Origin: a virus
IMG/VR virus record: IMGVR_UViG_3300038701_002504
Location: 83,235 to 109,508 of that record
Direction: 5' to 3' (one strand)
Length of the DNA: 26,274 nucleotides
This document shows positions 1,099 through 8,970 of this stretch, piece after piece; the stretch's first letter is position 1; each line of letters starts with the position of its first letter. Both the position numbers and the translations under genes were made by a program. Under the pieces are notes generated by a model, which saw nothing but the letters and a program-made list of their open reading frames with translations, did not search any database and was not told the origin of the DNA.

Positions 1099-1647
1099 AT
1101 GGCATTTAATATTAACGAAATGCGTGCTGGTTTAGTTGGTGGTGGAGCTCGTCCTTCGCTTTTTGAAGTTATCATTACAAACCCAATTTCATCAATTGCC
1201 GATATCCGCGTGCCTATTATGTGTAAAGCTACACAGTTACCAGGTCATACAATTGGTAAGATTGAAGTTCCATATTTTGGTCGTAAAATTCCTATTCCAG
1301 GCGACAGAATTGTACAGGATTGGACTGTTACAATCATCAATGATGAAACTTTTGATGTTAGAAACGCACTTGAAACTTGGTCAAATGCTATGAATTCTCA
1401 ACAAGGGAACGTTGCAACCAGAGGAAGTTCTCCGTCTCTTTATACATCACAGGCATCTGTAAGACAGTTTGGTAAAGACGGAAGTGTTCTTCGTATTTAT
1501 GAACTGAATGGAATATTCCCAATGGATATTTCTCCAATTGATCTGTCATGGGAATCAATTGATGTTATTGAAGAATTCCAGGTTACATGGGCAGTTTCCG
1601 ATTTTGCTGTGGTTGGTGGATCTTCCGGCGACGCTGGCGGCATCTGA
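1099..1647 (+). CDS. 19: Tail tube protein gp19
   Basis: GARPSLFEV, MCKATQLPG, PYFGRKIPIPGDR...WTVTIINDE, FPMDISPIDLSW, IEEFQVTW; AAGGAG SD. Confidence 0.95.
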   Translation: MAFNINEMRAGLVGGGARPSLFEVIITNPISSIADIRVPIMCKATQLPGHTIGKIEVPYFGRKIPIPGDRIVQDWTVTIINDETFDVRNALETWSNAMNSQQGNVATRGSSPSLYTSQASVRQFGKDGSVLRIYELNGIFPMDISPIDLSWESIDVIEEFQVTWAVSDFAVVGGSSGDAGGI

Positions 1648-1696: not shown

Positions 1697-1704
1697 TATA
1701 AATA
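1697..1704 (+). promoter_or_regulatory. T4-type late promoter
   Basis: TATAAATA upstream of gp20. Confidence 0.8.
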
Positions 1705-1726: not shown

Positions 1727-3427
1727 ATGGAACTTTTCGGATGGAAAATAGAAAAAAAGGAAGAAGAAAAAGAGACTAAATCTCCTTTTCCTATGCTTGA
1801 TGATGAAGGCTCTCTCATCATCGAAAAAAATTGGGTACCTGGTGCAGACCATGATGCCTATGCTGTTGCTACAAATTTTGATGATGTGGTTTCTTCTGAA
1901 AGCGAGCTTATCACAAAATATAGAGAGATGTCTCAGCTGCCCGAAGTTGATTATGCTGTCGACGACATCATTAATGAATTGATGTCTGTTGAAAAAGCAA
2001 ATGATATTGTTGATATTGACCTTGATGAACTTGAATATTCTAAAGGTGTCAAAAACAAAATAACCGACGAATTCAATCACATTTTAACTCTATTGGATTT
2101 CAATAATTCTGCATATGAAATAGCGCGTAATTGGTACGTTGATGGTCGTTTAACGTACGAAATTATTGTCGATGAAAAAGATTATGTTAAGAATGGTATT
2201 AAAGAAGTTCGCTATATCGATCCAAGAACCATTAGAAAAATTAAAGAAATTAAGAACTCTCAGGGTAGAGCAAATGCCATTTTAAAACAGTTAGCGGATG
2301 AATATTACATTTATTCACCAACTGGCTTTGGTAGACAGTCATTTAATACCGGAAGTATTTCAGGAACTGATGTTGTTAAAATGTCAGATGATTCTGTCGT
2401 TCATGTGACATCAGGAATTATGAACCATAATAAGACAATGGTTCAATCACATCTTCACAAAGCAATTCGTCCTCTTAATCAGTTGCGTGCACTAGAAGAT
2501 GCTTCTATCATTTATCGTATATCTCGTGCACCTGAAAGAAGAATTTTCTATATTGACGTTGGTAACTTGCCTAAAGGTAAAGCCGAACAACACCTTCAAA
2601 ATATTGCTCAGAAATATAAAAATAAACTTGTATATGATGGTAAAACTGGCGAAATACGAGATGACCGCAAATTTATGACGATGACTGAGGATTATTTCCT
2701 TCCTCGTCGTTCTGATGGTAAAGCAACTGAAATCACAACGCTTCCAGGTGGTCAGAATCTTGGCGAATTAGAAGAAGTTAATTATTTCCTGAATAAATTC
2801 TATAGATCTCTTAATCTTCCAATTTCTCGTCTTGAAAGCCAAAGTGGATTCCAATTTGGTAGACAAACTGAAATTTCTCGGGATGAATTAAAATTTGCTA
2901 AGTTTGTTGCGAGACTAAGAAAAAGATTTGCTCAGTTGTTCATTAAGCTTTTGAGAAGACAATTAGTGTTGAAAAATATTATGACTGCTGAAGAATTTGA
3001 TAGTATTAAAAACAATATATCATTTGAATTTTCTGCCGACAACCTTATTGCTGAAAATAAAGAACAAGAAGTTCTAGCAGGTAGACTTGATATCCTGAAT
3101 AATATTGACACTTATAAGGGTGTATACTTTTCTAAACAATTCATTCTTCGTAATGTTCTTCGTATGTCTCAGGAAGATATTGATGAGATGGAACAACAGA
3201 TCGGAAAAGAAAAGAAAACAAATGAATATGACGAGGATAATCAGCTTAAATCATATAATGCTGATCCGAATGCAATTGCACAAATGAACATGCAACAGGA
3301 CCAACAAGATCACAGCCAAGAAGTTGAAAAAGATTCTCTAGAACATAAAAAGAAAATCGACAAAGAACTCCTTAAAAAAGGTTTAAATCCTAATCAACAA
3401 ACACAATCTCAGGAAGAAAATGAATGA
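1727..3427 (+). CDS. 20: Portal protein gp20
   Basis: WYVDGR, YIDPR, IYRISRAPERRIFYIDVGNLPK, EDYFLPRR, EITTLPGGQNLG, EISRDELKF. Confidence 0.97.
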   Translation: MELFGWKIEKKEEEKETKSPFPMLDDEGSLIIEKNWVPGADHDAYAVATNFDDVVSSESELITKYREMSQLPEVDYAVDDIINELMSVEKANDIVDIDLDELEYSKGVKNKITDEFNHILTLLDFNNSAYEIARNWYVDGRLTYEIIVDEKDYVKNGIKEVRYIDPRTIRKIKEIKNSQGRANAILKQLADEYYIYSPTGFGRQSFNTGSISGTDVVKMSDDSVVHVTSGIMNHNKTMVQSHLHKAIRPLNQLRALEDASIIYRISRAPERRIFYIDVGNLPKGKAEQHLQNIAQKYKNKLVYDGKTGEIRDDRKFMTMTEDYFLPRRSDGKATEITTLPGGQNLGELEEVNYFLNKFYRSLNLPISRLESQSGFQFGRQTEISRDELKFAKFVARLRKRFAQLFIKLLRRQLVLKNIMTAEEFDSIKNNISFEFSADNLIAENKEQEVLAGRLDILNNIDTYKGVYFSKQFILRNVLRMSQEDIDEMEQQIGKEKKTNEYDEDNQLKSYNADPNAIAQMNMQQDQQDHSQEVEKDSLEHKKKIDKELLKKGLNPNQQTQSQEENE

Positions 3428-3735
3428 TAAAATTTAAAAATTTTCTTTTTGAGTATGAAGATTATTATTCTAAAGACAAATCAGTCGGCTCCGGTTTAAA
3501 ACGTAAAAAATATAAAAACAAAAAACCAGGTAGATGGGCAAAACGTATTGGATCCGGAGTAGGAGCTGCAATTGGTGGGGCTGTTGGATTTGCGGCACGA
3601 GGAAATTATGGATTAGCAGGTGGTGCTGCAGCTGGTGGTGCAATTGGTTATAAAGCTGGAGAGGCTGCATCAAACGCAAAAAGAAGAATTGCTGCAAATG
3701 CTTATGTTAAAAGAAGAAAAAAGCGTAATAGCTAA
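3424..3735 (+). CDS. Putative internal head protein: capsid-targeting-like leader plus cationic glycine-zipper
   Basis: ATGA-coupled to the portal; MIKFKNFLFE resembles the T4 internal-protein leader (MKTYQEFIAE type); GxxxG/A repeats flanked by K/R runs. Confidence 0.7.
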   Translation: MIKFKNFLFEYEDYYSKDKSVGSGLKRKKYKNKKPGRWAKRIGSGVGAAIGGAVGFAARGNYGLAGGAAAGGAIGYKAGEAASNAKRRIAANAYVKRRKKRNS

Positions 3736-3739
3736 TTAA

Positions 3740-3747
3740 TATAAATA
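3740..3747 (+). promoter_or_regulatory. T4-type late promoter
   Basis: TATAAATA followed by AAGGAG SD. Confidence 0.8.
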
Positions 3748-3767
3748 TTATTAAAAAGGAGATATAA

Positions 3768-4346
3768 ATGTCACTAGAAAAGTTACTTGTTGCGATAAAA
3801 GAAGGTAATTATGTTCAAGCTAAGGATGCTTTCTATCAAGAAGTGAATGAAAGAGTTAGCAATAAAATTGATGAAAAAAGATCTTCTATTTTAGAAGGCG
3901 AAGATAAAGAAGAATCAGAAGAAGAATCTGATGATGACGATGAAGAAGATGAAAACGACGACGACGATGATGACAGTATAAAGGAATCTCTTTATTCTAT
4001 GTCTGAATCTGAAATGAATTCATTTGTTGATTCATTGAATGAAACTGAATTAAATGTTCTATTATCTATTATTGAGTCTGACGAATATTTAATGGAAGGT
4101 ATCGGTTCTAAAATTAAATCTGGTCTAAAAAAGACAGGTAATTTGGTAAAAAGAACTGCAGTTGGAACAGCTAAAGATGTAGCAAGAAATCTTGGACGTG
4201 GTGCAGCTGTTGCTGCGGGCGGAGCTGCTGGTATGGCAGCGGGTGGAATTCCTGGAGCAGTTGCTGGCGGAGTTGCTGGTAACATGGCATATCAAGCTGG
4301 AAAAGATACACTAAAAAAGAAATTGGCGGCTAGAAACAAAAAATGA
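3768..4346 (+). CDS. gp67-like prohead core protein with C-terminal glycine-zipper extension
   Basis: LLVAIKEGNYVQAKDAF...KIDEKRSSILEGED plus D/E tract mirrors T4 gp67 and its position after gene 20; followed by a basic Gly/Ala-rich domain. Confidence 0.75.
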   Translation: MSLEKLLVAIKEGNYVQAKDAFYQEVNERVSNKIDEKRSSILEGEDKEESEEESDDDDEEDENDDDDDDSIKESLYSMSESEMNSFVDSLNETELNVLLSIIESDEYLMEGIGSKIKSGLKKTGNLVKRTAVGTAKDVARNLGRGAAVAAGGAAGMAAGGIPGAVAGGVAGNMAYQAGKDTLKKKLAARNKK

Positions 4347-4702
4347 AAAAGATAACAGAAGGCATTTTAAATAAAAATTACGTTCAGGCTAAGGATGCCT
4401 TCTACGAAGAAGTTGACAGAAGAATCAACGAAAAAATAGAAGAAAAAAGAATTCAAATCCTTTCTGAAAAGAAATGGAAACATTCTGGTCTTGCTGGTAC
4501 AATTGGTGGTATTGCCGGTACAGTAGCCGGTGCAGGAACATTAAATCCTGCTCTTGCTGTTGCTGGTGGTGCAGCGGGTCTTGCCGCTGGAGAAGCTGGA
4601 GAGTATGCAGCTAAAAAAGTAGGTAGATTTGTTAAAAATAAATACCTTAGAAGAAAAAGAAAAAAAGCACAAGCTCTAAAGGTGAAAAACAATGGTAGAT
4701 AA
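4343..4702 (+). CDS. Second gp67-like leader fused to a glycine-zipper domain
   Basis: NYVQAKDAFYEEV...KIEEKR nearly identical to the preceding ORF; Gly/Ala zipper and K/R tail. Confidence 0.75.
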   Translation: MKKITEGILNKNYVQAKDAFYEEVDRRINEKIEEKRIQILSEKKWKHSGLAGTIGGIAGTVAGAGTLNPALAVAGGAAGLAAGEAGEYAAKKVGRFVKNKYLRRKRKKAQALKVKNNGR

Positions 4703-6077
4703 GCAGAAGACAATCGGCGGCAAAAAAGCATTTAAAGATATGTTTGGTGATCCTAAGATCTATCAAATTGACGATCATGGGATTGAAGATCAGAAGGCCA
4801 AAAAAGATAAATCTCGTAAAGCTGATAAAGCTCCAGTTGCTGAGGGTATTAATGGTGAATGGACCAAGGAACGTTCACGCAGAGAAGATGAAAATATTAA
4901 AGCTGTAAAGAAGACATATGGCGATTTCAGAACTACTGTTGGAAAAAATTCAAAAGAGAAGATGAAAGAAATTGCTGCTTCTATGAATGAATCATGGGTT
5001 GTGACTATGCCTATATCTGATCCTGATAAAACTGGCAAAGAGATCAACAAAAGATTTATAGACCGCGGAATAGATTATCAGGATATGGGATGGGACAAGC
5101 AAGGTAATCTTACTGTTGAATTTGATGATGAAAAAGAAGCAAAACGTGCTGCAATGATTTTAAAATCTTTCAGACATTCTTCAAAAAATCAAATGCCTAA
5201 AGTTATGAAAGAATCTCTTTCTGATCTTAAATCTATGTATGCCTCATCAATACCTGAAATCGTCGATGAGATCAAAGAATTGTCATCAACTCTTATAGAT
5301 TATTACATGGATCAAGAACAGGAATGGGCTGATACAAATGTTGCACCAGCTCCTGGTATGTATCTGGATTGGAAGGGTATCTATAGAGGTCTTGAAGATT
5401 TAAGAGATATTATGCTTTGTGCTGCACCAGATGAACTTGTTGGTATCGATGGAACAGATGATATGAATGAGTCTGCAAACGACTCAATGAGACAAAAAGT
5501 TATGTCAGCAATTGCAGCAGATATAAGAAAAACTAATGAAAAATTCAAAACTAAAAAAGATGTTGAAAGATATTTAGATTTCACCGGCGGCGACATCATT
5601 ACTAAAATAACAAAGAATGATGATGATTTCAATAATATGCTTCAGTATGCTTCTGAAAAATTATCAAAGAATCTTAGAGAATCTAATCTCCATGAGATTT
5701 CAAAAGAAAGAAAAGATTCTTATGTAAAAAGATCTGCAACTGATGCCGGCTTAGCTAATTTTGGTAAAAGACAATCTGATAAACCAGATGAAAAAAAGAA
5801 ATTTGGTGATGTAGAAAGAAAAAGAAGAGCAGGTCTAAATTTAGCTCTTGCTAAAGGCGGTGACAAGCCTGTTTATAAAAAAGAATCGCTTGATGAAGCA
5901 TTCTCATCTGGATCATTGAAACTGATGGATGGATCAACATATAATTTAACATCAGACGAAGCAAAAGCTTTAAATAAAGTGATGTCTTCAACAAAAGAAA
6001 AAGATCGTATGACAAAAAGAATCACTAAAAGTAAAAGTGATTTGAAGTCTATGATAGAATTTTCAAAGGAAGTGTAA
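4692..6077 (+). CDS. Putative prohead core/internal protein (gp68 position)
   Basis: Between the gp67-like genes and gp21, overlapping both neighbours; many hydrophobic-x-E sites (MNES, MKES, LRES, LHEI, LDEA). Confidence 0.6.
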   Translation: MVDKQKTIGGKKAFKDMFGDPKIYQIDDHGIEDQKAKKDKSRKADKAPVAEGINGEWTKERSRREDENIKAVKKTYGDFRTTVGKNSKEKMKEIAASMNESWVVTMPISDPDKTGKEINKRFIDRGIDYQDMGWDKQGNLTVEFDDEKEAKRAAMILKSFRHSSKNQMPKVMKESLSDLKSMYASSIPEIVDEIKELSSTLIDYYMDQEQEWADTNVAPAPGMYLDWKGIYRGLEDLRDIMLCAAPDELVGIDGTDDMNESANDSMRQKVMSAIAADIRKTNEKFKTKKDVERYLDFTGGDIITKITKNDDDFNNMLQYASEKLSKNLRESNLHEISKERKDSYVKRSATDAGLANFGKRQSDKPDEKKKFGDVERKRRAGLNLALAKGGDKPVYKKESLDEAFSSGSLKLMDGSTYNLTSDEAKALNKVMSSTKEKDRMTKRITKSKSDLKSMIEFSKEV

Positions 6078-6718
6078 TGAAACTTATAACAGAACAAAAC
6101 TTTGATGTGAACTATATTAGAGAAAATCTAGAGGAAGGTAGAAAACCTACCTTATGGATCGAAGGAATTTTCATGCAGGGGGACATTAAAAACCGTAATG
6201 GTAGAATTTATCCTGCTACAATTCTTGAAAGACAAATGAACTATTATGTTGAAAATTTCGTCTCAAAACATAGATCGCTTGGAGAATTAAATCACCCAAA
6301 TGGACCAACAATCAATCTTGATAAAGTATCTCATATGATTACTGAAATGAGACGTGATGGTTCTGATTTCTATGGTAAAGCAAAAATACTTGATACTCCA
6401 ATGGGTAATATTGCGCGTTCATTAATTGATGAAGGTGCTTCTCTGGGAGTTTCAACAAGAGGTCTAGGATCTGTTAAACAATCTGGTGGTGCTATGGTTG
6501 TTCAAGAAGATTTTGTTCTGAATACAGTTGATATCGTTTCTCAGCCTTCTGCTATGGATGCGTGGGTAAATGGAATCATGGAAGGGGTGGAATGGATCTG
6601 GGATGGTGATACTTTGAAAGAAGTAACATTAAATGAAATTAAAAAAGATTTAGACAAGCCACTATTAACTGAAGCACAAGTGTTAAGAAATTGGAAGAAA
6701 TTTCTCAAAACGCTATAA
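6077..6718 (+). CDS. 21: Prohead protease gp21
   Basis: MKLITE, IEGIFMQ, NRNGRIYP, GELNHP, VSH, LGVSTRGLGS, DIVSQPSA. Confidence 0.96.
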   Translation: MKLITEQNFDVNYIRENLEEGRKPTLWIEGIFMQGDIKNRNGRIYPATILERQMNYYVENFVSKHRSLGELNHPNGPTINLDKVSHMITEMRRDGSDFYGKAKILDTPMGNIARSLIDEGASLGVSTRGLGSVKQSGGAMVVQEDFVLNTVDIVSQPSAMDAWVNGIMEGVEWIWDGDTLKEVTLNEIKKDLDKPLLTEAQVLRNWKKFLKTL

Positions 6719-6756: not shown

Positions 6757-7608
6757 ATGGACAAGATTAAAAATACTCACGATTCTGGTGAAGCTGAAGT
6801 TGATAAAGTAACAGGCTCTCACAAAAGACCAAAGGATAAGAATGTTGGCGACAAAAATGCTGACACTTCAGCTGCTGAAAAGGTTCAGACAATGCCATCT
6901 GGTGCTGTAAGAAAAGAAGATCTTGATATTCTTTTTGATGGTACTGAATTATCTGAAGAATTCCAGGAACAAGCTTTTGTTCTTTTTGAAGGCGCAGTTT
7001 CCGCAAAAATTGAATCTTTGAAAGAAGCTATGGAAGCAGAATTTGAAGAAAAACTTGCTGAAAGCGTTGAGTCTTATGAAGACAAACTTTCAGATTTCAT
7101 TGATATCTTTGTAGAAAATTACATGCAGGAAAATGAGCTTGCAATTGAAAATGGTATTAAAGCTGAAATTGCTGAATCACTTCTTGATGGACTAAAAAAT
7201 CTATTCGTAGAACATAATGTTGAAATCGATGAAGACAAAGTTGAAATTGTTGAAGCCCTTTCAGAAAGAGTTGCAGAACTTGAAGGCGCTTTAAATGAAG
7301 CCCTTGAAAGCAAGGTAACAACTCAGAAACTTATTGAAAATTTCGAAAAAGAACGTATTCTCGCTGAAATGACATCTGATATGGATGAAGTTTCTAAGGA
7401 TAGAATTAAGAAACTTACAGAAAATATCTCATTCAAAGATGCGACAAGCTTTGAAGCTTCTGTAAACATTCTTAAAGAATCTGTGTCTTCTAAGAAGACT
7501 GTTGTTAAAGAAGACATGCTGAATGAAGAAGTAGCTGTAACAGATGGTTTAACTGAAAAAGTTATTGATCCAAAAATGGCTGCAATTCTAAAAGCTCTTA
7601 GAGACTAA
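6757..7608 (+). CDS. 22: Prohead scaffold protein gp22
   Basis: Acidic coiled coil; ELSEEF...FEGAV, ENELAIENGIKAEIAES...LKNLFVEH; lies between gp21 and gp23. Confidence 0.92.
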   Translation: MDKIKNTHDSGEAEVDKVTGSHKRPKDKNVGDKNADTSAAEKVQTMPSGAVRKEDLDILFDGTELSEEFQEQAFVLFEGAVSAKIESLKEAMEAEFEEKLAESVESYEDKLSDFIDIFVENYMQENELAIENGIKAEIAESLLDGLKNLFVEHNVEIDEDKVEIVEALSERVAELEGALNEALESKVTTQKLIENFEKERILAEMTSDMDEVSKDRIKKLTENISFKDATSFEASVNILKESVSSKKTVVKEDMLNEEVAVTDGLTEKVIDPKMAAILKALRD

Positions 7609-7659: not shown

Positions 7660-8970
7660 ATGTCAATGGTTAAAAAAGAAATTATCGCAAAGTGGGAAGA
7701 TGTTCTTAATGAATCATCTGCCGGTTGCCCAGCAATCACAAATCCAGAAATTGCTGCTGTAACAGCTCAGCTTTTGGAAAACACTGATAAAGCTTATTCA
7801 TCAGGTCTTTTTGAAAATGTTCCTTCAGGACTTTCAGAAGCAGCACCTACTTCTAACACAGGTAACGTAAAGAATTACGACCCTGTTCTTATCTCACTTC
7901 TAAGACGTGCGGCTCCTAAGCTTATCGGATATGAAATCATGGGAACTCAGGCTATGACTGGACCAACTGGCCAGATCTTCGCAATGAGATCACGTTACAC
8001 TTCAAACACAGGTGCGGAAGCATTCTACAATGAAGCAAATACAGGTTTCTCAACAATTAATGGTGGTAACACTGAAATCGTTGGTGATGCAGGTCTTAAC
8101 CTAGGTACAACTCCAACAGGTAATGCTGAAACATATAACGCTGCTGGCGCTATGTCTCTTGCACAGGCTGAAGCACTTGGTACTTCAGGTAATGCTGCTT
8201 TCGCTGAAATGACAGTGACAATCGAACAGCTTTCTGTTACTGCTGGATCACGTAAGCTAAAGGCTCACTACACACATGAATTCGCACAGGACTTGAAGGC
8301 TATTCACGGACTTGAAGCTGAAAAAGAACTTTCAAACGTTCTTTCAACAGAACTTGTTTCTGAAATTAACCGTCAGCTTGTAAGAACATGTTATCTAACA
8401 TCTTCAGCTGGTGCTACTTCTGGTACCACAACAGCTGGTATTTTCGATCTTGACACTGACTCAAACGGTCGTTGGATGGGTGAAAAGTTCGCAGGACTAC
8501 ACTTCTTTATTGACCTAGAAGCTAACGCTATCGCTAAGTCAACACGTAGAGGTAAGGGTAATGTTCTTATTACTTCTTCAAACGTAGCTTCTGCCCTTCA
8601 GATGGCTGGAGTTCTTAAGTTCAATGATGCTGCTGCTTCATTAACTATCGATGACACCGGTGTTTCATACGCAGGTATGATTAACAATAAGATCAAAGTG
8701 TTCATTGATCCATATGCAACATCAGATTATATCGTTCTTGGATATAAGGGTGCCAACAGCTGGGATGCTGGTATGTACTACTGCCCTTACACACCTCTAC
8801 AGATGGTAAGAGCAACTGAAACTGGATCACTTACACCAGTAATTGGTTTCCAGACAAGATACGGACTTGTAGCTAACCCATTCTCAAGAGGAGCAACTGC
8901 TTCTGACGGGTCAATGATGGCTAACAGTAACGTGTATTACAGAAGAACTGCTATCGCAAATATTCAGTAA
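7660..8970 (+). CDS. 23: Major capsid protein gp23
   Basis: YDPVLISLLRRA, MTGPTGQIFAMR, SRKLKA, AQDLKAIHGL, TRRGKGN, YYCPY, IGFQTRYG. Confidence 0.98.
   Translation: MSMVKKEIIAKWEDVLNESSAGCPAITNPEIAAVTAQLLENTDKAYSSGLFENVPSGLSEAAPTSNTGNVKNYDPVLISLLRRAAPKLIGYEIMGTQAMTGPTGQIFAMRSRYTSNTGAEAFYNEANTGFSTINGGNTEIVGDAGLNLGTTPTGNAETYNAAGAMSLAQAEALGTSGNAAFAEMTVTIEQLSVTAGSRKLKAHYTHEFAQDLKAIHGLEAEKELSNVLSTELVSEINRQLVRTCYLTSSAGATSGTTTAGIFDLDTDSNGRWMGEKFAGLHFFIDLEANAIAKSTRRGKGNVLITSSNVASALQMAGVLKFNDAAASLTIDDTGVSYAGMINNKIKVFIDPYATSDYIVLGYKGANSWDAGMYYCPYTPLQMVRATETGSLTPVIGFQTRYGLVANPFSRGATASDGSMMANSNVYYRRTAIANIQ

Follow-up and report, generated by a model that had tools for sequence, protein, structure and literature searches.

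Genes and late expression of the locus

The stretch of DNA analysed here (the window, 26,274 nucleotides; positions 83,235 to 109,508 of IMG/VR record IMGVR_UViG_3300038701_002504) occupies the final 26 kb of a 109.5-kb contig from an uncultured T4-like phage, for which completeness is estimated at 64%. Between the genes for the portal protein gp20 and the prohead protease gp21 lie three consecutive open reading frames (ORFs), ORF1, ORF2 and ORF3, each of which encodes a leader resembling those of T4 head-core or internal proteins, a predicted protease site and a small, basic part rich in glycine and alanine, referred to here as the cargo (Table 1). This gene order bears out an earlier preliminary description of the DNA, with the addition that ORF4 occupies the same interval too. 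The same slot, between genes 20 and 21, is filled in T4 by genes 67 and 68. The preliminary description also took the three genes to be late genes, with which TATAAATA boxes at 1697 and 3740 and starts overlapping prior stops agree. The box occurs 12 times in the window against 4.0 expected and precedes gp19, gp20, ORF2, gp22 and gp23, the ATG of ORF1 overlaps the stop codon of gp20 (ATGA) and thereby couples its translation to that of gp20, and overlaps of start with preceding stop are also found at ORF3, ORF4 and gp21. The late boxes and overlapping starts therefore identify ORF1 to ORF3 as late genes of the head operon.

The three ORFs are real genes. The sole close relative of the locus, a 1.5-kb JGI contig (L086) that serves as the reference for the locus's ratios of nonsynonymous to synonymous substitution rates (dN/dS), keeps the order ORF1-ORF2-ORF3-ORF4, with dN/dS values of 0.22 for ORF2 and 0.14 for ORF3. 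In contigs from four other metagenome studies, some of which cover only parts of the stretch, 22 of the 29 differences listed affect the third position of codons in the plus-strand frame, and an indel listed inside ORF1 keeps the frame. Long antisense ORFs overlapping all three glycine/alanine (G/A) tracts, together with low AlphaFold2 (AF2) confidence across these tracts, could be taken to mean that the tracts are functionless low-complexity sequence or that the ORFs are mis-called, for example with the antisense frames being the real ones. Such a reading is highly improbable, as it conflicts with purifying selection in the plus frame (dN/dS 0.08 for the ORF3 cargo), the third-position bias and in-frame indel, the gene order preserved in L086, the non-random periodicity of the glycines and the promoter, ribosome-binding site and coupled starts that the genes possess. 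The antisense ORFs themselves are shadows cast by GGN and GCN codons.

Table 1. Coordinates of the features discussed (window positions except in the last row; a slash in a motif marks the predicted cut)
Feature	Position	Strand	Remarks
gp19 tail tube	1099-1647	+	
Late promoter box TATAAATA	1697..1704	+	T4-type, upstream of gp20
gp20 portal protein	1727..3427	+	Pfam Portal_T4 E 8.5e-163; phrog_213
ORF1, 103 aa	3424-3735	+	
ORF1 leader MIKFKNFLFE	3424..3453	+	ten-residue capsid-targeting-type tag, predicted cut after E10
ORF1 cargo, 93 aa	3454..3735	+	basic stretch KRKKYKNKKPG, predicted Gly-zipper hairpin, basic tail; no [LI]xE
Late promoter box TATAAATA	3740..3747	+	20 nt before ORF2 ATG, followed by AAGGAG ribosome-binding site
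ORF2, 192 aa	3768-4346	+	
ORF2 residues 1-43, gp67-like two-helix prohead-core domain	3768..3896	+	ends SILE/G
ORF2 residues 44-70, poly-acidic tract	3897..3977	+	net charge -20; as in T4 gp67
ORF2 residues 71-110, acidic helical pro-piece	3978..4097	+	net charge -9; ends YLME/G
ORF2 cargo, 82 aa	4098..4346	+	Glu-free; begins with amphipathic basic helices, then a Gly ladder of six rungs and a basic tail
ORF3, 119 aa	4343-4702	+	
ORF3 residues 1-42, gp67-like leader	4343..4468	+	ends ILSE/K
ORF3 cargo, 77 aa	4469..4702	+	G/A-rich hairpin, long basic C-terminal helix; no [LI]xE
ORF4, 461 aa	4692-6077	+	
gp21 prohead protease	6077..6718	+	Pfam Peptidase_S77 E 5.9e-38; phrog_207 E 1.4e-73
gp22 scaffold	6757-7608	+	
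gp23 capsid protein	7660-8970	+	Pfam Gp23 domain from residue 70
gp23 propeptide, residues 1-60	7660..7839	+	holds all four gp23 [LI]xE, the last being LSE/AAP
Clusters of tagged ORFs, loci L087-L090	contig G000 12417-14641, 19510-21009, 38772-43988, 77689-79160	+	

Composition and glycine periodicity of the cargoes

A scan of six-frame ORFs of at least 50 residues across the whole contig (n = 414) sets ORF1 to ORF3 apart, as they are unique in holding 19 to 22 glycine or alanine residues per 30-residue window, and the next-best window on the contig, in the capsid protein, holds 14. Among plus-strand ORFs of at least 45 residues in 80 related gp21 loci, no comparable tract is present, one capsid protein excepted. 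The predicted cargoes of ORF1, ORF2 and ORF3 comprise 93, 82 and 77 residues, respectively, and are indeed flanked by lysine and arginine and poor in acidic residues (K+R 16 to 23 versus D+E 2 to 4), as the preliminary description had stated. Their isoelectric points are 10.7 to 11.3, glycine plus alanine make up 38 to 43% of the residues, and the net charges are +19, +14 and +15, respectively. The mature peptides would weigh about 8 to 10 kDa, and one predicted product starts GIGSKIKSGLKK, just as had been claimed.

A glycine zipper had been attributed to all three cargoes; a glycine ladder beyond what composition gives is present in ORF2, borderline in ORF1 and lacking in ORF3. The ladder of glycines at i,i+4 spacing has six rungs in ORF2 and exceeds shuffled sequences (p 0.002 to 0.004 for cargoes of the ORF2 type; about 0.004 for ORF2), while the five rungs of ORF1 reach a shuffle p of 0.056, with 0.013 for its orthologue P0021. 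The ORF3 ladder, with three rungs, is no better than shuffled (p 0.4), and this cargo is G/A-rich with mixed spacing. A related protein of the cultured Rhizobium phage RHph_I1_18, described below, has a seven-rung ladder (shuffle p 0.0002). In comparisons with known families, the ORF1 cargo scores 17.1 bits against Pfam Gly-zipper_Omp (PF13488; cut-off 25), and P0021, which is 48% identical to ORF1, scores 29.1 bits, above the same 25-bit cut-off, and matches the zipper region of YiaD-type lipoproteins (E 5e-7). ORF2 and ORF3 have no significant match to a glycine-zipper family in the Pfam clan (PF13488, PF13441, PF05433) or NCBIfam.

Leaders and predicted targeting to the head

The capsid-targeting sequence (CTS) of T4 is MKTYQEFIAE (PMC8442874), in which residues 4 and 7 serve targeting and residues 8 and 10 processing (PMC9026906). 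The ORF1 tag fits these mapped determinants at residues 4, 7, 8 and 10, and between it and the P0021 leader, MKSFNQFLKE, only M1, F4, F7, L8 and E10 are invariant. A search of ORF starts across the whole contig with the regular expression M..[FYW]..[FYW][LI].E finds the tag at the beginning of 14 ORFs, all on the plus strand, with the consensus M-x-x-F-K-x-[FY]-L-x-E. The sequences behind the tag are unrelated among the tagged proteins, as with the Acb1-like phosphoesterase (Pfam E 2.8e-11), the T7 gp0.7-kinase-like protein (PHROG E 3.5e-10) and ORF1. The other tagged ORFs include a 499-residue protein resembling poly(ADP-ribose) polymerase (PARP-like) and about ten paralogues resembling ADP-ribosyltransferases (ART-like), which carry GRDAPLYH directly after the tag.

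The leaders of ORF2 and ORF3 are of a different type. Residues 4-69 of ORF2 match PHROG 1064 at E 9e-10 and residues 1-39 of ORF3 at E 1.5e-4, the same family that T4 gp67 matches at E 1.7e-30; the score against Pfam GP67 (PF17634) is 17.1 bits, below the 27-bit gathering cut-off. ORF3 is 52% identical to the N-terminus of ORF2, and both share with T4 gp67 a site where the domain ends (FLIE/GEE in T4, SILE/GED in ORF2 and ILSE/KKW in ORF3). In ORF2 the site is followed by a poly-acidic tract (SILE/GEDKEE versus FLIE/GEEPED in T4), and in ORF3 it stands without the tract. The family match, the mutual identity and the shared site therefore mark ORF2 and ORF3 as probable gene 67 paralogues with added C-terminal parts. 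A fusion of gp67 and gp68 was considered for ORF2 and rejected, being without sequence support (BLASTP E 0.12) and with an hhalign result dominated by the gp22 part of P0007, a metagenome protein described below.

AF2 models the gp67-like domain of ORF2 as two helices (residues 2-11 and 15-44; predicted local distance difference test, pLDDT, 81-89), the acidic tract as disordered and the pro-piece (residues 67-103) as three helices at a pLDDT of about 85. The net charge of the pro-piece is -9 to -11, as opposed to +12 to +16 for the cargo. The preliminary description had given each gene one leader; a leader is present in every case, and that of ORF2 is a composite of gp67 domain, acidic tract and folded pro-piece. 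Its proposal that the leaders are head-targeting elements is well supported by the CTS-type tag of ORF1, the gp67 domain of ORF2 and ORF3 and the conserved L-x-E boundaries, which together indicate that all three products are probably directed to the head. The gp67-like domain of ORF2 is 80% identical to that of L086 with a dN/dS of 0.07. The ORF3 cargo, at 92% identity and a dN/dS of 0.08, is the most conserved part of the locus, above its own leader, and the differences listed for it in other metagenome contigs, at nine places, all lie on third codon positions.

Predicted cleavage by the prohead protease

The T4 protease gp21 cuts after L/I-x-E (PMC9026906), and the gp21 encoded in the window is the enzyme predicted to cut the leaders of ORF1 to ORF3. 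The hydrophobic-x-E sites named in the preliminary description are present, namely LFE at residue 10 of ORF1, LME at 110 of ORF2, LSE at 42 of ORF3 and, for comparison, LSE at residue 60 of gp23, followed by AAP. As a single [LI]-x-E is common by chance, it is the position and conservation of the sites that are informative. ORF1 has one [LI]xE (residue 10), ORF2 seven (all at or before residue 110) and ORF3 four (all at or before residue 42), and the cargoes of all three hold none, as is likewise the case in L086 ORF2, P0005, P0021 and the P0007 module; this leader-only pattern is seen in six of seven sequences, plus the P0007 module. With the sites confined to the leaders, these should therefore fragment and the cargoes survive. 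The same distribution is found in gp23, in which the 376 residues behind the propeptide contain no [LI]xE, and is consistent with selection removing protease sites from head proteins in their mature form; the gp22 scaffold has fifteen. The boundary L-x-E is conserved in relatives at 47 to 64% identity, with ILSE kept in P0005 and L-x-E-G/A kept at the end of the pro-piece in ORF2, P0007 and the Rhizobium phage protein P0003.

Relatives and a travelling module

A full phmmer scan of 1.8 billion representatives identified P0007, a 426-residue metagenome gp22 scaffold protein (T4_CASP E 2e-49), which carries, behind the first 50 residues and ahead of the conserved KEDLDILF block, a module 47% identical to residues 73-186 of ORF2. 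The module consists of an acidic helical pro-piece ending ALSE/G and a zipper cargo. In the cultured Rhizobium phage RHph_I1_18, a gene for 140 residues between gp21 and gp22 (EVB91_282, L001 9124-9546) encodes P0003, the N-terminus of which aligns with the ORF2 pro-piece and ends LLE/A, followed by a glycine ladder and a basic tail. Counting these, the zipper cargo is found on four carriers, a CTS tag, a gp67 domain, gp22 (P0007) and the pro-piece alone (RHph_I1_18). Occurrence behind four different head-core carriers is expected if the aim is to get the peptide into the head. In the same Rhizobium phage, the gene after the portal gene, EVB91_280 (L001 7761-8480), starts MKKFGDFLED, which is tag-like with Asp at position 10, and its product has a C-terminal region in common with ORF4 of the window (E 3e-4).

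The lineage is rare and consists of two close-clade contigs, short related contigs from other metagenomes of algal and lake origin, P0007 and the one cultured Rhizobium phage. In 50,697 phage records neither the DNA of the locus nor the ORF2 protein found a match and the Rhizobium phage protein matched only itself, with the low-complexity filter possibly hiding weak matches. IMG/VR scans with ORF3, P0007 and an alignment of pro-piece plus cargo returned no relatives, and searches of 5.8 billion proteins returned, besides the queries, only the relative's orthologues P0005 and P0021.

Proposed role and its alternatives

A model is proposed in which ORF1, ORF2 and ORF3 would be late-expressed precursors that enter the prohead core, ORF1 via its ten-residue capsid-targeting tag and ORF2 and ORF3 via their gp67-type core domain, with the acidic tract and acidic pro-piece of ORF2 possibly neutralizing its cargo. 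After assembly of the shell, gp21 would cut behind L/I-x-E and break up the leaders, which hold 1 to 7 sites, and three cationic glycine-zipper peptides would stay in the head with the DNA, like the internal proteins of T4. The steps through retention in the head rest on homology, motif position and conservation, and it is likely that the three products are packaged and processed. On infection, the peptides would exit via the tail, either together with the DNA or before it, and the hairpins, although only weakly hydrophobic, may self-associate at the cytoplasmic membrane, where they could open or widen a passage for the DNA and the phage's many tagged, presumably packaged enzymes, or depolarize the cell. 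The whole chain including membrane action at entry is assigned a probability of about 0.42.

Several lines of evidence point toward a membrane. The ORF2-type cargoes start with amphipathic basic helices, the hydrophobic moments of which (0.5 to 0.73) are near those of melittin and magainin, and sub-threshold matches are found to glycine-rich segments of tape-measure and internal virion proteins. In other systems, glycine zippers drive membrane permeabilization by CdzC/D, Tse4, TelE and LXG-T2, and a glycine zipper is needed for translocation of the type VI secretion system effector Tde1 (PMC12955049). A precedent for a head protein is gp47 of the giant Salmonella phage SPN3US, which is processed by the protease, has a predicted membrane helix and is inferred to be ejected (PMC5694885). 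The literature searched held no report of glycine zippers in phage head or ejection proteins. The comparison with bacteriocins drawn in the preliminary description was not sustained, since the matches to MccV (E 0.18 and 0.1) fall far short of the cut-off, the leaders are head-core elements and the neighbors are head genes only; the locus contains no lipoprotein signal, secretion-system domain or immunity gene.

A considerable body of results weighs against the membrane step. The best 19-residue Kyte-Doolittle means of the zipper cores are 1.1 to 1.3, under transmembrane thresholds, and their summed Hessa insertion energies are +4.6 to +7 kcal/mol, and thus transmembrane modeling, a check put forward in the preliminary description, indicates a hydrophobicity too low for ordinary membrane insertion. 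The AF2 pLDDT of the zippers is below 50, too poor for a fold search. A profile search of the PDB gave no significant structure, the hits to a prion hydrophobic core and a Dot/Icm OmpA-like protein being driven by composition, and the ESM Atlas gave only unnamed viral clusters with scores of at most 0.8. For crossing the membrane, myoviruses already have a tape-measure protein and a tail tube. Evolution of the ORF1 and ORF2 cargoes is rapid (52 to 53% identity, dN/dS 0.4 to 0.8), which fits an arms race and also weak constraint. A survey of gene order, also put forward as a check, did not favor the proposal, as the 80 nearest gp21 loci, from the closest T4-like phages, show no such gene, so the module is dispensable for T4-like phages in general. 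T4 gp68, a core and shape protein, shares the plan of acidic leader and basic tail without a zipper, and a purely structural or DNA-binding role therefore stays a strong rival.

In that rival reading, the three products are unremarkable core or internal proteins of the prohead, belonging to the class of gp67 and gp68, and are packaged and cut, but their basic peptides act only inside the head, where they neutralize and organize the DNA or help set the shape of the core or head, and the glycine zipper provides tight helix-helix packing that lets three paralogues oligomerize with no role at a membrane. The parallel to gp68 is close, since this protein is encoded at the same locus and has 67 N-terminal residues with a net charge of -14 and all five of its [LI]xE sites, followed by 74 C-terminal residues with a net charge of +23 and none. 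T4 core proteins gp67 and gp68 are tied to head size determination (PMC9026906), the P0007 module lies within the main scaffold protein gp22, protamine-like tails such as KRRKKRNS and RRKRKK suit DNA binding, and the polarity of the hairpins exceeds what standard membrane insertion allows. In the other direction, gp68 and the T4 internal proteins do without a G/A hairpin (the gp68 tail has 19% glycine plus alanine as opposed to 38 to 43% here), the hairpin matches Pfam and NCBIfam glycine-zipper families of membrane lipoproteins (through P0021), similarity to gp68 is undetectable (E 0.12) and the nearest gp21 loci lack the gene. On balance, action confined to the head is quite possible, at roughly one chance in three.

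Action in the membrane of the producing cell, with the leader as a regulator and not a packaging signal, is improbable. Here the proteins would tether the growing prohead core to the inner membrane until release by gp21, serve in lysis in the manner of a holin, antiholin or disruptin, or exclude superinfecting phages. Two short G/A-rich helices with a highly basic C-terminus may resemble small holins and signal-anchor-release (SAR)-type domains, and the late expression of the genes fits. Furthermore, the inner membrane is where T4 proheads are built, and they are freed after cleavage (PMC9026906; PMC5694885). These points are offset by the lack of a signal peptide and of a transmembrane-grade segment, by leaders that are head-core elements (the gp67 domain and a CTS tag that begins 13 other ORFs, several of them enzyme-like), by the position of the genes within the gp20-gp21 operon and not by lysis genes, and by the difficulty of keeping in a membrane a core component that is enclosed by the shell. 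Features of holins are likewise absent, with no transmembrane-grade segment, no match to a holin family and the genes in the head operon.

Within the reading of membrane action at entry, a more specific and unlikely variant, proposed by analogy, is that the three peptides, stored in the virion and armed by the protease, leave the head through the contracted tail and assemble by their zippers into a hetero-oligomeric translocon in the cytoplasmic membrane. Such a translocon would pass the DNA and an unusually large load of tagged proteins, including the ART-like paralogues and the Acb1-like and kinase-like proteins, and is likened to the translocation of Tde1 and to the principle of the nodavirus gamma peptide and adenovirus protein VI. 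These two membrane-lytic peptides of non-enveloped animal viruses are cleaved during maturation, stored in the capsid beside the genome and released at entry to breach a membrane. The likeness is an analogy only, and only if the membrane reading is right, as the viruses, proteases and peptides are unrelated. We know of no tailed phage that uses this principle.

Comparison with known systems

The locus is a variant of the T4 internal and core proteins and not a new type of system. ORF1 shares with the T4 internal proteins a ten-residue tag (aromatic at 4, Phe at 7, L/I at 8 and Glu at 10) that gp21 takes off, here by prediction, a small, highly basic mature part predicted to be retained in the head and variable cargo behind a constant tag. 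It differs in its double glycine-zipper hairpin, which is not known from the T4 proteins, and in its place directly after the portal gene in the head operon. About 1,000 copies of the T4 internal proteins stay in the head. The likeness of ORF2 and ORF3 to T4 gp67 lies in the N-terminal two-helix domain, the [IL]-x-E at its end and the position between genes 20 and 21. T4 gp67, a prohead core protein of 80 residues from which internal peptides are derived, ends with the acidic tract, to which ORF2 adds a pro-piece of 40 residues and a cationic zipper peptide of 82, whereas in ORF3 the tract is replaced by a zipper peptide of 77, and the gene is duplicated here. The similarity to T4 gp68 consists of the locus and of an acidic N-terminal half with all sites followed by a site-free basic C-terminal part of about 75 residues; there is, however, no sequence similarity, the gp68 PHROGs are unmatched and the gp68 tail has no G/A hairpin. 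For gp67 and gp68, the numbers built into a T4 head are about 341 and 240, respectively (PMC5694885).

With glycine-zipper proteins and toxins (YiaD, OsmB and SlyB; CdzC/D, Tse4, TelE, LXG-T2 and Tde1) the cargoes have in common GxxxG ladders, though not in ORF3, on two predicted short helices joined by a turn, and the difference is that here a phage head would deliver them. Among these proteins and toxins are some that enter or permeabilize membranes and some that take an effector through the inner membrane (PMC12955049). SPN3US gp47 also has a propeptide cut behind x-x-E by the prohead protease and a mature part that opens with a predicted membrane helix, and as a putative ejection protein it would come into contact with the host membrane (PMC5694885), but it is a large protein of a phiKZ-like phage with one classical transmembrane helix and no relation in sequence.

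The capsid-targeting tag and core proteins of T4 are textbook knowledge and serve as a protein-delivery platform, and the known cargoes of these loading routes are soluble enzymes or plain basic proteins. In the present case, loading routes of the T4 type appear to carry a membrane-type glycine-zipper hairpin, in three copies in one phage. Should the membrane action be true, it would address how the DNA and co-injected proteins cross the cytoplasmic membrane after the tail tube reaches the periplasm, and would define a new class of phage-delivered membrane-active peptide. If the peptides act only in the head, they would show a zipper motif at work in assembling the core or condensing the DNA. 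In both cases, the locus offers a clean natural case of a modular design of carrier, cleavage site and cargo in phage heads, and as one phage with the module is cultured, it is open to testing.

Other observations

The phmmer scan also returned a family of proteins beginning MSLEKIV (loci L092-L108), in which a gp67-like helix at the N-terminus is combined with a poly-acidic tract and frequently with variable small C-terminal domains. These proteins were considered as gp67 carriers with variable cargo and then dropped, since the context in L094 is not that of a head locus, the gene (4001-4522) lying between an endolysin gene and a Rz-like spanin gene, and since there is no match to PHROG 1064 at E of at most 1e-3. 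In the 17 loci, no relative of gp20, gp21, gp22 or gp23 was found.

In ORF4 (4692-6077), a segment of 74 residues at about residues 100-173 is extra in comparison with the relative L086, with flanks that are 89% identical. The segment is bounded by two similar short motifs, MNES and MKES, and has the appearance of an inserted module with cleavage-like sites on either side. On its minus strand the window also has an ORF for 183 residues (290-841), which lies between the genes for tail sheath and tail tube, and at the matching position RHph_I1_18 carries a Srd-like gene on the opposite strand.

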